Source of the DNA: Gemmatimonadota bacterium
Lineage (GTDB): Bacteria; Gemmatimonadota; Gemmatimonadetes; Gemmatimonadales; GWC2-71-9
Assembly: GCA_039591655.1 (NCBI GenBank)
Contig: JBDHDE010000008.1
Location: forward strand, 1-64,000
Direction: 5' to 3'
DNA length: 64,000 nt
In this document: piece by piece, positions 34,501 through 40,500 of the stretch
Layout of the letters: every line of letters begins with the position of its first letter
Numbering within the stretch: the first letter of the stretch is position 1
Position numbers: made by a program

Positions 34501-37500
34501 GCGTGCCGGATATGAATGTGGGGCTCGTGAGGCTCGAGATGCTGCGTGCCGCTGAGATGGTCGGGTGACGCAGGCCCGGGCGGTCGAGCCTTGGACGCTG
34601 GAGCCGCTGGAACGGTTCGTGGCGGAGTCGGGCGCGCGCCTGACTTTGCTGATGACGCCAGCGGGCCAAGTGCTCGCTCAGTACGGGTTCACGCGGGCAG
34701 TGGACGTGATGTCGGCGGCCGCGTTGGGTGCCGCCATCGTCGCCTCCACGGGAGAGATCGCGCGGATGCTCCAAGAGCGGGAGTTTGCCCTGCTGAACCA
34801 CCAGGGAGTGCAGCACGGCATCTTCCTGGGGGCATTCGAGACCCCGCGCGGCCGGTTGCTGGCATTGGTAGTTTATGGACCAGACTCCTCGGTGGGACTG
34901 GTGCAGTTATTCTTTGAGGAGCTCGTTCGCGGATTGGTCGCGGCAGCGCCCGTTGAGGAACAGCCGCAGGCGGTGCTGGCCGCCAATTTCGAGGAAGAGC
35001 TGAATCGCAGTCTGGCGAGCCTATTCGGACAGTGAGACGTGTCACTAGTCAACTTCACTACGCGCGAGATCACCTGTAAGATCGTCTATTACGGACCCGG
35101 CCGGTCCGGCAAGACGACGAACTTGCAGTATATCTATGAGAGGGTCCCCGGTGATCGCCGCGGGCGGATGGTCTCCCTCGCCACCCAAACCGACCGTACC
35201 CTCTTCTTCGATTTCCTCCCGTTGGAGCTGGGGAGTATCTCGGGCTTCACGACGCGGTTTCAGCTCTACACGGTCCCGGGGCAGGTGTACTACAACGCCA
35301 CGCGTAAGCTGGTCCTGCAGGGGGCCGACGGCGTGGTCTTTGTGGCGGACAGCCAGGCGCGGCAACTGGACGAGAACATCGAGAGCCTACAGAACCTGCA
35401 GGAGAATCTCCTGGAGCAGGGTGTCGACGCGCGGGGGGTGCCCCTCGTCATCCAGTACAACAAGCAGGATCTGCCGAGCGACCTCATTCTCTCCACGAGC
35501 GAGCTCAACGAGGCGCTGAACTTCTGGGGCGCTCCCAACTTCTCCGCCGCCGCCCTCGAGGGCACCGGTGTGTTCGAGACGCTGAAGGCCGCGTCGGAGC
35601 TGGTGCTGCGAAAGCTGAGCGAGGAGACACCGACGTGAGCGACGAGCTCAATCCGCGCTTCAGCTTCGAGACCTTCGTGGTCGGCGCGGGCAACAGGCTT
35701 GCCGTGACCGCGGCGCGCACGGTGGCGCAGTCACCAGGGGCGGCCTACAACCCGCTTTACCTGTACAGCCCCACCGGTCTGGGCAAGACGCATCTGCTCA
35801 CGGCGGTCGGACAGCTAGCCAAGGAACACAGCCCCGACCTGCACGTGGAGTACCTCACCCTGGACGAGTTCGTCGAGGCGTATCACGCAGCGGTCGCCGC
35901 AGGGCAGAGCGAAGCGTTCCGCAACCGGTTTGACCGGGTCGATGTACTCCTGGTGGACGACGTGCAGTTCCTCACACACCGGCGGGAGATGCAGGCGGAA
36001 CTGTTGCGCGTTACGGGGCAGCTCCAGTCGGCGGGGAAGCAGATCGTGCTCACGAGCGACTGTCCCCCCTCGGAGATCGAGGACCTAGACGAGCGCCTGC
36101 TGTCGCGCTTCGACGGCGGACTAGTGGCGGACATCGGTGCCCCTGACTACGAGACGCGCCTCGCGATCCTCAAGCGGCGGGCCGAGGACCGCGATGCCGA
36201 GTTCGACGAGGAGGTATTGGGGGCGGTCGCGAGCTTCGACCTCCCCAATGTCCGGGAGCTGCTGGGGCTGCTGAACCGGTTGGTGGCATATCAGGCGGTG
36301 AGCGAGTCGCCGCTCACGCCTGCGGGAGCCAAGGAGTTGCTGGCTGGGGATGCAGAGCGCGCCAAGGCCGCTGCGGAGAGGCCGCCGCCCGCACCGCCTG
36401 CCGCACCGGCGCCGGTCGCCCGGCCGGAGGACGAGTTCGCCGATTTTCTGTCCGACGTGGCGCACACGGTCGAGGAGCAGGTGGAGGCATGGCGATCCCG
36501 CCTGGGCGAGGCCATCCTGCTCTGGGAGGCGGAAGGCTATCGCACGGTGCGGCTGGAGGAGATGCTGCAGCAGGACATCCCTGTGCCCGCCGAGCGCGTG
36601 GTCCAGCAGTTCGAGCGGGACGTCGAGCGCCTCCGATCCTCCCAGGCGGCCATCGCCAAGATGGATCCCGGGCGGGCCGACGACCCCCTGTTCTTCGACC
36701 CCGACCGCGTGGAGGAAGCCAACGAGCTGGTGCAGCAAGCGCTGGTGGACACGGGCCCGCCCCCCGGTCCGTCGGCAGCGTGGTCCCTCGACACGTACGT
36801 GGTCGGTGAGGCCAACAAGGTCGCGCTCAATGCCGCCCGCGCAGTCGCCGATCGGCCGGGCCAGCGCTACAACCCGCTGGTGCTCGTGGGCCCCACGGGC
36901 GTCGGCAAGACGCATCTCATGCACGCCATCGGGCACCGGCTCGGCGCAGCAGCCGATGCCGTTGTCGCGTGTCTCACGGCGCAGCAGCTGTTGGACGAGC
37001 TGGTCGAGGCGATCGAAGGTGAGCGGGTGGACATCTGGCGCGCGCGGTACCGGAGGGTGACGGCCTTTCTGCTGGACGACGTGCACATCTTGGCCCGCAA
37101 GGAGCGCTCCCAGGAGGAGCTGTTCCATCTGTTCAACGAGCTGCACGACGCCGGACACCAGTTGGTGTTCACCGCGGTGACGTCCCCGCGGGAGATCGAG
37201 GGGTTGGACGACCGCTTGAAGTCTCGGCTGGAGGGCGGGCTCGTCACGACAATGGCGGGACCGGATCGGGAGCTGCGGCGCAACATCGTGGCGCGCAAGA
37301 TGGACGAGCTGTTCCGGGGCGTGGACGACGAGCTCATCGACTACATCGCGGCGCGACCGGCGGACTCGATACGCGCGGTGCTCGGCTTGATCCAGCGGGT
37401 TGCGATCGCCGCCGAAGCACAGGAGGTCGCGCCCAGTGCCGCGTTGGCGCGGGAGCTGATCGAGGGCGCAGCCCCGGAGCGGGCCCGGACGGGCGTGCGC

Positions 37501-40500
37501 ACGAGCGGGGTGCTCCTGTCTCCCTCGGGGAACGTGCGCAGCCGGGAGAAGCTCGTTTGGAGTTGGCCCGATCCGGTGGAACGCGTGATTGAGGCGCTGG
37601 TCTAGTGGCGATCAAGGGTAGTCTCAAGGAGGCCTCGCTGGCCGACGTGTTGCAGCTGCTGGCCCTGGGACAGAAGACCGGGTGCCTGTCGGTCACGGAC
37701 CGCACCAATCTCGGACACATCTACTTCGACCGGGGGCGCGTCTCGTACGCGTCGCTGGTGAACCGACGGGACCGCCTCGGGGATATCCTGGTCAAGAACG
37801 GCAAGATCACCCAGGCGCAGCTGCACGGGGCGATCGAGCAGCAGGGCCGCGAGCGCGACAAGCGGCTCGGGGAGATCCTTTTGGAGCAGGGCGCAGTCTC
37901 CCGGGAAGATCTAGAGCACTACATGCGTGTCCAGATCGAGGAGGCCGTGTTCTTCCTGTTCACATGGTCCCGGGGAAGCTTCAACTTCGAGGCCGACGTC
38001 TATCCCGCGGAACAGGACTTCCTCGTCAGGATCAATCCCGAATCCCTCCTCCTCGAGGGAGCGCGACGAGTCGATGAGTGGAGCCTCATCGAGAAGAAGA
38101 TCCCGTCGTTCGACCTGATCTTCACCGTCGATCGGGCGCGCCTCGATGCGTCCCAGGTCACCCTCACGCCGCAGCAGGAGCGTCTCATGACGCTGCTCGA
38201 CGGCTCACGGGACGTCGCGGGCATCGTAGAGGATTCGGGGCTCGTGGAGTTCGAGGTCGGCAAGGCGCTCTACGGGCTCATCACCGCGGGGTTCGCCCAC
38301 CGCACCGGCCGCAGCGCGACGACGCGTCCCGAAGTCGGCGACGCGCGGGTGGATGAGCACCGCAACCTCGGCATCGCGTTCTACAGGACCGGGATGCTCG
38401 ACGAGGCGACGCGGGAGTTCCGGCGCGTGGTGGATCTCCGCACGTCGGACGGGTCCGCCCAGTTCTACCTCGGCCTCATCGCGCTGAAGCAGGCGCACTG
38501 GCAGGAAGCGATACGGCACTTCAGCCAGGCGGTGGAACGTGGCGGTCCCAATGCCACCGTGCTGCACAATCTCGCGCTGAGCTACGAGAAGGACGGACGC
38601 TTCGACGAAGCGGAGGACGTGTACGCCGAAGCCGCGACGCTGGCGCGTCGCGATGCTCGCATCATGACGAGCTGGGGCATCAATGCGCTGCAGCGCGGCG
38701 ATTGCGAGGTTGCCGCCGGACGGCTCGACCGCGCCCGGGAGATCACCGGCGACGAGACACCGAGCGCCCTGTGGTATTGGGCCCGTTCCCTGTCCGCATC
38801 TGCGCTGGGGAATCTCCAGGAGGCCGACGCCCTACTGCGGGACGGTCTCGACACCTACCCCGGCCACTCCGTGTTGCGCAACAACCGGGGGGCACTGCTC
38901 GAGATGATGGGCGATCTCACGCAGGCGGAAGACGTGCTGCGGGCGGCGCTGGCAGACGACCCCTCACTGCCGCAGCTCTCCAAGAACCTCGGCGATCTCT
39001 TCTACCGGGCGGCGCGCTACGACGACGCCTGGGAGGCGTACCAGCGGGCCGTCAAGCTGAACCCCAAGCTCGGGGACGACGTCTACTTCAAGCTGGGCAA
39101 CATCGCCTATAAGCGACTCGACCGCGAGTCCGCTGCCGAGTTCTGGCGCAAGACGTTGGAGCTGAACCCGGGGCACGAGCTGGCCCGCACCAATCTCGAG
39201 ACGGTGAGCGCGCTCACGTGACGGGCGGCGAGCACGACCCGGCACTGCTCGAGCTGTTCCAGCGGATCGGGCGGAACTGCGGGCTTGGCTGTGAGGCCTA
39301 CAAGGCCAGCTGTCTGCGCCGGCGCCTTGCCGTGCGGATGCGTGCGTGCGGCGTGGAGACCTACCAGCAGTACGGGGCGGTGCTGGACCAGGACGCCTCC
39401 GAGTATGGGCGCCTGCTGGACGCGCTCACGATCAACGTCACCAAGTTCTACCGTAATGCCGAGACCTGGCAGGTGATCGCCGATACGGTGCTCCCCGAGT
39501 TGTGGGCGCAGCGGCCGGGACATGTGCGGTGCTGGTCGGCCGGATGCGCCTCCGGCGAGGAGGCGTACACGCTGGCCATGCTGCTGCTGGAGCGTGCCCG
39601 GGGCACGGGCGATCTCACCGCGTCGGGTTGCTGGGTGGACGCCACGGATCTCGATCACAGGAGCTTGGCCCGGGCGGCCGATGGGGCATACCGCCCCGAC
39701 GCGTTCGACGAGATGCCGGGAACGCTCATCACCAGGTACGTCAAGGGCGACACGTCCCGCGCGGTGGCCCCCGAGGTGAAGGCCCTGGTGCGGTTTCGGC
39801 GCCACGACCTGCTACGGGATCCCGCGCCGGCTCCGCCGTATGAGCTCATCATTTGCCGCAATGTGGTGATCTACTTCGATCGGCCGACCCAGGATGTGCT
39901 GTTCCAGAGCTTCGTGCAGGCGCTCTCCCCCGGGGGCTATCTGGTCCTGGGCAAGGTCGAGACGTTGGTCGGGCAGGCGCGGGACCGGCTCGTCATCGAG
40001 AACACGCGCGAGCGGATCTATCGGAAGCCATGACACCGGAGAACAACGAGACCATCGTCGGCTTGGGTGAGATCGCCGTGGCGCAGGGGAACGGCAGGCT
40101 TACGGCCCTCGGTCTGGGGAGCTGCGTGGCGGTGATCCTGCACGACCCCGAGGGGAAGATCGGTGCCCTCGCACACGTGCTCCTGCCCACCCAGACCCTC
40201 TCGCGCACGCAGCGCAGCCCCGCCCGGGCGGCGGACACCGCGGTCCCGGCGATCGTCCAGGAGATCAAGCAGCAGGGGGCGGTGCTCCAGCGGACAGTGG
40301 CGAAGCTGGTCGGCGGCAGCACGATGTTCGGCGACCTGCTTCCCACCGGCACGGTCCACATCGGTGAGCGCAACGTGCTGGCATGCCGCTACGCTCTGCG
40401 CCAGGCGGGCATACCGGTAGTAGCGGAGGCCGTGGGAGGGCGGTCCGGCCGGTCGGTGTTCTTCGACGTCGCCTCGGGCACCGTGACTGTGCGGCAGGTC

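Follow-up and report, generated by a model that had tools for sequence, protein, structure and literature searches.

A DnaA-derived protein with two ATPase modules and its PATAN-MshEN-TPR neighbour in a Gemmatimonadota chemosensory cluster

The window analysed here, a stretch of 64,000 nucleotides of contig JBDHDE010000008.1 from a Gemmatimonadota bacterium (assembly GCA_039591655.1), carries a chemosensory cluster in the order cheW, cheY, cheA, cheC, a TPR gene, a DUF4388-TPR gene, three roadblock genes, mglA and the DnaA-like gene that is the subject of this study. A DUF4388-TPR gene, cheR, cheD, cheB and two cheW genes follow on its 3' side (Table 1). The cluster is flanked by divIVA-ileS and by the mraW-ftsI-mur cell-division cluster, and no non-coding RNA besides two tRNAs is found in the window. 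The genome's true dnaA is found on a different contig, where it encodes a full product of 459 residues and adjoins rpmH-like sequence. An earlier note on this DNA had placed the gene between roadblock/MglA genes and a DUF4388-TPR gene inside the che cluster and apart from the real dnaA, and the gene order agrees on both points.

Table 1. Features of the DnaA-like protein and its gene cluster (positions in the window; residues refer to the DnaA-like protein unless stated otherwise)
Feature	Position	Strand	Remarks
cheW, cheY, cheA, cheC (upstream half of chemosensory cluster)	25735..29590	+	
893-aa TPR protein and second PATAN-TPR paralogue	29595..33431	+	
Three roadblock/MglB-like genes (TPR-roadblock, roadblock, MglB-like)	33424..35035	+	
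MglA-type small GTPase	35039..35638	+	
DnaA-derived adaptor/ATPase gene (adaptor role proposed)	35635..37605	+	656 aa; GTG start overlaps mglA stop, stop overlaps PATAN gene start
Module 1, DnaA domain III with lid	35644..36354	+	residues 4-240; Walker A/B, sensor I Asp142 and sensor II Arg207 kept
Pro/Ala-rich disordered hinge	36376..36429	+	residues 248-265; pLDDT <50 at 252-265
Acidic amphipathic helix motif	36430..36489	+	residues 266-285; first of two motifs surviving in the microprotein
Unnamed all-helical domain	36430..36750	+	residues 266-372; homologous to repeats of long Thermoplasmata proteins
Module 2, DnaA domain III with lid	36763..37467	+	residues 377-611; Walker A/B, finger Arg531 and sensor II kept; sensor I Asp lost
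C-terminal Trp motif	37540..37602	+	residues 636-656; second motif, present in all forms
PATAN (DUF4388)-MshEN-TPR gene, putative partner	37605..39221	+	538 aa; two-copy MshEN motif at its residues 57-109, then TPRs
cheR, cheD, cheB, two cheW, TPR gene (downstream half of chemosensory cluster)	39218..43390	+	

A Pfam scan of the 656-residue protein gives two Bac_DnaA stretches (345.7 bits) and no match to DnaA_N or Bac_DnaA_C. DnaA domain I is missing, module 1 beginning near the N-terminus, and so is the DnaA-box-binding helix-turn-helix of domain IV, the tail being disordered in the predicted structure. The prediction contains two DnaA domain-III folds (Bacillus subtilis 8bv3, Z 31.0, rmsd 1.6 Å over 235 residues), although its pTM is 0.52 and it does not fix the placement of module 1 relative to module 2. 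Two DnaA-type modules without domain I or IV, as previously described, are thus borne out by Pfam and by the predicted structure. The fold-search matches are to the ATPase modules and are silent on the helical domain between them, which has no Pfam match and a best PDB sequence match at E 0.12.

The AAA+ modules belong to domain III of the initiator clade. They are 40-43% identical to the DnaA of this genome, reach Z 29-31 against DnaA structures, and share fold and active-site motifs with DnaA domain III (PF00308, TIGR00362; PDB 8bv3, 8btg, 2z4r, 2hcb, 3r8f). The protein scores 488.8 with TIGR00362, and because this passes the cut-off of 343.9 it is labelled DnaA in databases. Unlike DnaA, it lacks domains I and IV, has two modules with complementary losses, a helical domain and a tail motif, and is encoded away from the oriC genes; its modules are, moreover, dispensable. 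Hda/HdaA (TIGR03420; PDB 3bos, 3sc3) also consists of a DnaA-type module, lacks domain IV and may donate an arginine finger, but the present protein is far closer to DnaA, and its TIGR03420 score of 181.1, summed over two modules, stays below the cut-off of 194.8.

The family is wider than had been thought. A range limited to the nearest families does not hold, as the linker of the protein occurs in 200 of 301 genomes of the phylum, among them 20 of 59 from four families of the class that are more distant. The conserved core of the family is not the tandem ATPase. Of 42 complete and diverse representatives, 21 possess both modules and the other 21 are without module 2, and in ten genomes from four genera only an open reading frame of 55-75 residues is left, carrying the helix and tail motifs. 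These ten genomes are relatives, and the loss may represent one or two events. Gene calls for the form of about 60 residues exist on 116 contigs and fall in a 27-member cluster, and two genomes compared differ in it by seven synonymous and no non-synonymous changes. One genome (G202) retains a degenerate module and the tail, the helix motif being unrecognisable; frameshifts account for the short frames seen in G125 and in G276 and for the broken one in G219, which were left out of the count of short forms.

The constant neighbour of the gene is the PATAN-MshEN-TPR gene, not mglA. A tail-profile search covering 74 loci gave a match in 69, and the PATAN gene lies directly behind the tail motif in all 69; the 200 linker-positive genomes all fall within the 216 that are PATAN-positive. 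In one lineage, the DnaA-like and PATAN genes are fused in frame into a product of 1026 residues. Four almost identical records, each from a different source, contain this fusion, and at its joint the start Met and the Glu pair are eroded. A further apparent fusion (P0193) was garbled and was rejected. The PATAN neighbour matches NF053729 at 54.9 bits (cut-off 38) and has two copies of the 24-residue MshEN motif, whose consensus is given in the available portion of PMC11731258, and it is predicted from these residues to be a c-di-GMP receptor. As reported, in all 11 named Gemmatimonadales/Gemmatimonadota loci the gene is preceded by mglA and followed by DUF4388; the association with mglA does not extend to the whole family, since at least 13 of the genomes examined lack mglA at the locus and have rluD (9), cheC (3) or mglB (1) upstream instead.

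The residues of the tail are near-invariant even though its pLDDT in the monomer model is 38-53, and a conserved segment that is disordered alone fits the expectation for a binding motif. Part of this conservation, that of the Glu pair, is explained by a translation signal: the Glu codons double as the ribosome-binding site of the PATAN gene, a GGAG-type sequence whose distance from the start codon does not vary, and the two genes overlap by one base, stop to start, in 52 of the 69 loci. Such coupling would be expected if the short forms were decaying remnants, retained only for translation of the PATAN gene, with the tandem ATPase as the sole function. This is very improbable: conservation at the protein level extends to the invariant Trp, to an Arg encoded by six different codons and to the helix motif, which lies well upstream of the site, and the differences in the microprotein are all synonymous. 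When PATAN paralogues were searched for a tail motif of their own, the weak matches proved to be an unrelated Cys-bearing segment.

Residue counts from 110 close full-length homologues show that the two modules are complementary: the nucleotide pocket stays in module 1 and the arginine finger in module 2. Both Walker A motifs had been described as kept, and their lysine is indeed conserved in 109 (module 1) and 110 (module 2) of the 110 sequences. The arginine finger is present in both modules of 63 homologues, in module 2 only of 43 and in neither of 4, never in module 1 only; it is thus conserved in 106 of 110 in module 2. In the protein described here, sensor I Asp, arginine finger (Arg158) and sensor II Arg occur together in module 1, yet this finger is variable across the family. 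In a distant family, module 2 lacks the Walker B pair at all eight loci and the Walker A Lys at seven of them, and still retains both box VII arginines at all eight despite this erosion. Where module 2 is present, module 1 keeps sensor I in 18 of 21 and sensor II in 17 of 21 representatives; where it is absent, the counts drop to 9 and 8 of 21. This decay of module 1 once module 2 is lost points to action in cis.

We propose, with slightly better than even confidence, that the protein is a docking adaptor that sits on the PATAN-MshEN-TPR protein by means of two short motifs and carries an optional composite ATP switch, probably in the control of type IV pili or polarity. The observations beneath this proposal are the domain layout of the protein, the series of module losses, the neighbour that never changes, the naturally occurring fusion and the way in which the residues of the two modules complement each other. 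The tail, and possibly the helix, would bind the PATAN-MshEN-TPR protein directly. Module 1 would provide the ATP pocket and module 2 would complete it with its arginine finger, as between two adjacent protomers of a DnaA filament, and this optional switch would gate the adaptor-PATAN complex in the chemosensory pathway, with c-di-GMP as a putative input through MshEN and the pilus as a putative output through PATAN. In Synechocystis, PATAN domains bind PilB1 and PilC, according to the available text of bioRxiv 10.1101/2021.06.11.447907; the adaptor would be the first candidate binding partner for PATAN domains outside cyanobacteria. A role in motility or polarity is suggested by the neighbouring genes. 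PilM is present in this genome, where a FliG search gave no match, and all 39 genomes that bear the module have it, against 12 of the 39 with FliG, but it is also found in 16 of 20 module-less genomes and is not discriminating.

Other functions can be envisaged for the same modules. An Hda-like or filament-capping regulator of true DnaA, by which the chemosensory/PATAN complex would time replication initiation, would account for the near-universal finger of module 2 and for its retention of the DnaA positions Lys243, Arg245, Ser246 and Val211 (100, 102, 96 and, as V/I/L, 96 of 110) and Arg227, which are lost in module 1; the location between divIVA-ileS and mraW-ftsI-mur would also suit it. 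It is nevertheless unlikely: a sliding-clamp-binding motif, searched with a pattern from general knowledge, is found in none of the 110 homologues, the modules do not group with the single Hda sequence in the comparison, half of the diverse representatives do without module 2 and the ten microprotein genomes without either module, and module 1 decays without module 2, as expected for action in cis. The adaptor model, for its part, gives no account of why module 2 conserves the DnaA-like Lys243, Arg245, Ser246 and Val211 positions.

DnaA Val211 and Arg245 contact single-stranded DNA, and an ATPase whose module 2 senses such DNA, for example in pilus-linked uptake, is conceivable from the equivalents in that module. 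It is very improbable, since module 1 has His and Glu at the Val211 and Arg245 equivalents, true DnaAs themselves vary at position 245 (Arg in 12 of 21), and DnaA requires a long filament to bind single-stranded DNA, whereas the module here is dispensable. A direct partner of MglA/MglB, either effector or nucleotide-dependent regulator of the GTPase, is favoured by the translational overlap with mglA in this genome and by mglA upstream in all named loci and in 6 of 10 microprotein loci, but the chance of it is small: at least 13 genomes keep the gene together with the PATAN gene without mglA at the locus. MglA is probably not the partner, because it is missing there while the PATAN-TPR gene always follows.

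Reuse of an initiator fold in motility/polarity signalling had been suggested earlier. Three findings speak for reuse outside replication, namely the absence of domains I and IV, the separate dnaA and the signalling context; the tandem ATPase as defining feature is not borne out. The engine of a replication initiator has apparently been reused as a signalling part, and relatives with two modules, one, none or a fusion form a natural series that, together with a likely partner and two candidate motifs for mutation, makes its function testable. Group 1 MglA/MglB modules, like this locus, bring MglA, roadblock and PATAN genes together, and Gemmatimonadetes are among their holders (PMC4316618, main text). 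DnaA is not mentioned in that main text, but its table S2 lists MglA neighbours and could include the gene. The available text of this paper and of the Synechocystis preprint mentions no partner of PATAN that is DnaA-like or a microprotein. In the main texts searched, with most subscription journals outside the search, no publication combining DnaA, MglA and roadblock was found, "DnaA paralog" had no occurrence in the literature searched for the family, and nothing on the family itself came up there.

Through the helical domain, the bacterial family is connected with archaeal proteins that carry a DnaA core; the same kind of literature search, most subscription journals again lying outside it, found no publication on these proteins. 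Repeats that match the domain occur in proteins of Thermoplasmata, and several of these proteins likewise have a DnaA core that lacks domain IV, in the architecture helical repeats, Bac_DnaA, and double zinc ribbon or DUF835. The two groups share the helical unit, the truncated core and a Gly at the position of DnaA Trp288 (10 of 10 archaeal sequences, 86 of 110 for module 1 and 101 of 110 for module 2; Trp in 19 of 21 DnaAs). The Thermoplasmata fusions differ in having one near-canonical module, many repeats and other end domains, and no tail motif was detected in them. Their N-terminal domain has no Pfam match; it aligns in register with the PATAN profile at a score of 13.9, where shuffles reach 17.3. 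Metagenome scans gave no genomic context for the archaeal proteins. Tentatively, both groups may represent an undescribed bacterial-archaeal signalling module for the control of type IV pili, made up of a DnaA core without DNA recognition, the helical unit and a PATAN-type output; it would be one long fusion in Thermoplasmata and, in Gemmatimonadota, an adaptor plus a PATAN-TPR protein, the adaptor being shrinkable to 60 residues. AU tests did not reject a clade of the modules with the archaeal ones (p 0.37) or with Gemmatimonadota DnaA (p 0.44). Genes of this family are widely mislabelled dnaA, and archaeal "DnaA" calls are misleading in the same way.

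The putative adaptor gene (g00645) encodes a protein in which Pfam finds two Bac_DnaA domains and neither DnaA_N nor Bac_DnaA_C. An AlphaFold2 model of the 656-aa protein, built from 66 sequences (mean pLDDT 89.6, pTM 0.52), contains the DnaA domain-III fold twice, as modules 1 and 2, together with a confident helical domain (residues 268-372) in the linker between them; confidence is low at residues 252-265 and across the C-terminal tail (613-656). Among solved structures, domain III of B. subtilis DnaA matches best (Z 31.0, rmsd 1.6 Å, 235 residues). Pfam and the model bear out the domain content claimed in the earlier note, and dnaA proper is, as stated there, separate: a complete DnaA of 459 aa is encoded on a different contig of this genome. 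The family is often labelled DnaA in databases; membership tests ruled out a DnaA identity, although the score exceeds the DnaA cut-off, and an Hda identity as well. Relatives bearing names are Gemmatimonadales or Gemmatimonadota MAGs. The family is real and is undescribed in the literature searched, where no description of it was found.

The adaptor gene overlaps both of its neighbours, mglA and a DUF4388 (PATAN)-TPR gene, and the locus is embedded in a chemosensory cluster, cheW-cheY-cheA-cheC ... cheR-cheD-cheB-cheW, that has divIVA-ileS-dksA-rluD on one side and the mraW-ftsI-mur cell-division cluster on the other.

Coordinates of the putative adaptor gene, its surroundings and related loci
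Feature	Position	Strand	Remarks
Diadenylate cyclase (DAC) gene, then gene for 845-aa TMEM260-like protein O-mannosyltransferase	window 15564-19127		
divIVA-ileS-dksA-rluD	window 19729-24783		ileS/rluD flank persists in distant families, even without che genes
Putative adaptor gene	window 35635-37605	+	656 residues
Peptidase-MA-like gene, then tRNA-Val, unnamed 598-aa protein, tRNA-Asp	window 43441-46403		peptidase-MA-like gene remains behind PATAN gene even in minimal f7 loci
mraW-ftsI-mur cell-division cluster	window 46474-62990		
Second mglA-mglB pair of this genome	G000:C17:6904-8028		50% identity to operon MglA
Diverged MglA, three Gemmatimonadales loci	L012-L014, about 9400-9990		37-46% identical vs about 80% elsewhere; accompanied by absence of cheR, cheD, cheB and downstream cheW genes
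Tandem repeat of ~15 bases	L081:7985-8092 (G112)		six or so imperfect copies, between microprotein stop and PATAN start

The helical linker, which is family-specific, is present in 200 of the 301 phylum genomes (by family, f1 120/124, f2 56/71, f3 3/3, f4 4/6, f5 1/1, f7 11/48 and f8 4/4) and was not found in the 43 genomes of f6 and f9-f12. The PATAN gene occurs in 216, among them all 200 linker-positive ones; both counts take in G055, G095, G155 and G180, which are marked unpublished and used in no other claim.

The core of the family is not the tandem ATPase. Fifteen of the 16 PATAN-positive, linker-negative genomes were examined (G292 was left out), and in ten, from four genera of f2, the sole ORF before the PATAN gene encodes a microprotein of 55-75 aa, made of the acidic helix that starts the linker of the full-length protein and the C-terminal Trp motif. 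In the other five we found a single degenerate module with tail (G202), both modules but a linker cut short (G178), a two-module gene broken by a frameshift (G219), a tail lying at a contig edge (G076) and the other PATAN paralogue alone (G273). The 60-aa form is annotated 'hypothetical protein' in Gemmatimonadaceae and is a called gene on 116 contigs. Its codons differ at 7 synonymous and 0 non-synonymous places between two genomes, and amino-acid changes are numerous in more distant pairs (21:24, 6:6, 7:24). It is highly unlikely that the short forms are mere remnants. The MshEN insert of the PATAN partner is also gone in 9 of the 10 microprotein genomes, which may reflect a single event because these genomes are relatives. 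When 1.84 billion representatives were searched with a profile, the best 150 matches included 124 of family type, 42 of them complete at both ends; 21 of these have two modules (14 with the second lid, 7 without) and 21 lack module 2.

The constant neighbour of the adaptor is the PATAN gene. A tail profile run on 74 loci (one genome entered twice) matched 69. Each of these has the PATAN start within 130 bases behind the tail, 52 of them with a one-base overlap; in the five loci missed, the motif is still recognisable by eye. The DUF4388 neighbour described in the earlier note is borne out. The gene upstream varies: it is mglA here, rluD in eight f7 genomes and G202, and cheC (three genomes) or mglB (one) before the microprotein gene. 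PATAN genes are known near MglA genes, according to passages of PMC4316618; with mglA inconstant at the locus, MglA is an unlikely partner. A natural fusion protein of 1026 aa occurs in NCBI, ENA and Logan, in four records that are 99.7-99.9% alike; a single reading frame runs through both modules, which are eroded, and on through the linker, the tail and PATAN-TPR. The C-terminal motif reported earlier proved to be near-invariant, yet it is unstructured in the monomer model, and we infer that it may fold on a partner; its Glu pair also serves as ribosome-binding site for the next gene, a caution on tail conservation. In the PATAN partner the MshEN motif (consensus as in PMC11731258) is present in two copies and scores above its curated cut-off. 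The most probable reading, at slightly better than even odds, is that the protein is an adaptor for this PATAN-MshEN-TPR protein and that its DnaA-derived modules form a composite ATP switch which the adaptor can do without. There is also a large PATAN paralogue family (P0121-P0190, 940-1500 aa), whose members combine a segment bearing Cys with a long middle of low complexity and, at the C-terminus, a carboxypeptidase-regulatory-like domain; three other proteins join PATAN-TPR to a Ser/Thr kinase.

Module residues were numbered on E. coli DnaA, with identities checked; Arg285 is its arginine finger in the portions of PMC8682772 and PMC7561715 consulted. In module 1 of 110 full-length close homologues the Walker A/B motifs are kept, with sensor I in 108, sensor II in 109 and the finger in no more than 63; module 2 has lost sensor I and keeps the finger in 106, and none of the 110 has a finger in module 1 only. 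In relatives with module 2, module 1 retains sensor I in 18/21 and sensor II in 17/21; in those without, 9/21 and 8/21, with the Walker A lysine in 21/21. By their residues the modules are complementary, and one composite ATP site, with a pocket from module 1 and the finger from module 2, would fit these complementary losses and the decay of module 1 sensors where module 2 is gone, the module-module arrangement not being fixed by the model at pTM 0.52. The claim that both Walker A motifs are kept holds in the close homologues (lysine in 109 of 110 for module 1 and 110 of 110 for module 2). In f7, module 2 has lost the Walker A lysine at 7 of eight loci and the Walker B pair at all eight; both box VII arginines are nevertheless retained (8/8). 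Module 2 also retains DnaA-like Lys243, Arg245, Ser/Thr246, Val211 and Arg227 positions, which the composite site leaves unexplained. In DnaA, Asp269 is the sensor I residue and Arg334 the sensor II residue, and Val211 and Arg245 take part in ssDNA binding. Hda-like control of DnaA is a doubtful explanation, and a sensor of ssDNA a highly unlikely one.

The output was checked in 59 selected genomes, of which 39 have the module and 20 lack it. PilM is present in 39/39 and 16/20, respectively, and FliG in 12/39 and 1/20; in this genome, which is 95% complete, PilM is present and FliG gave no match. The flagellum is therefore not required, and pili are compatible with the module distribution, which does not single them out. 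In Synechocystis, PilB1 and PilC are reported binding partners of PATAN domains (bioRxiv 10.1101/2021.06.11.447907).

The other 26 of the best 150 profile matches are long proteins with 4-24 copies of the adaptor's helical unit, scoring 110-214 bits forward and at most 4 bits reversed. Profile-profile comparison of linker and repeats gave 99.2% over 87 columns, for repeats picked by the same profile, and direct BLASTP across the helical region is weak (E 0.004). In five of the 26 there is also a DnaA core that lacks domain IV, in most cases with a double zinc ribbon behind, four by Pfam (230-236 bits, among 22 scanned) and the fifth by our own profile. These five are without a taxon label. The label Thermoplasmata is attached to one repeat protein and to a close relative of the five proteins' ATPase, encoded on a 3.58-Mb contig; the Atlas cluster nearest to them is archaeal, which at a score of 0.88 is no more than a lead. 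Quick trees put module 1, module 2 and the archaeal modules into a group each, the last near Bacillota DnaA that had been sampled as its closest matches. AU tests are compatible both with a joint clade of bacterial and archaeal modules (p 0.37) and with an origin of the modules in Gemmatimonadota DnaA (p 0.44), rejecting neither. At the Trp288 position the archaeal and both bacterial modules share a Gly. [quoted passage not shown] Four giant proteins of 2300-3100 aa (P0214, P0220, P0224, P0230) consist mostly of this same helical repeat; P0214 and P0220 are without a Pfam match, and others have an N-terminal DUF835.
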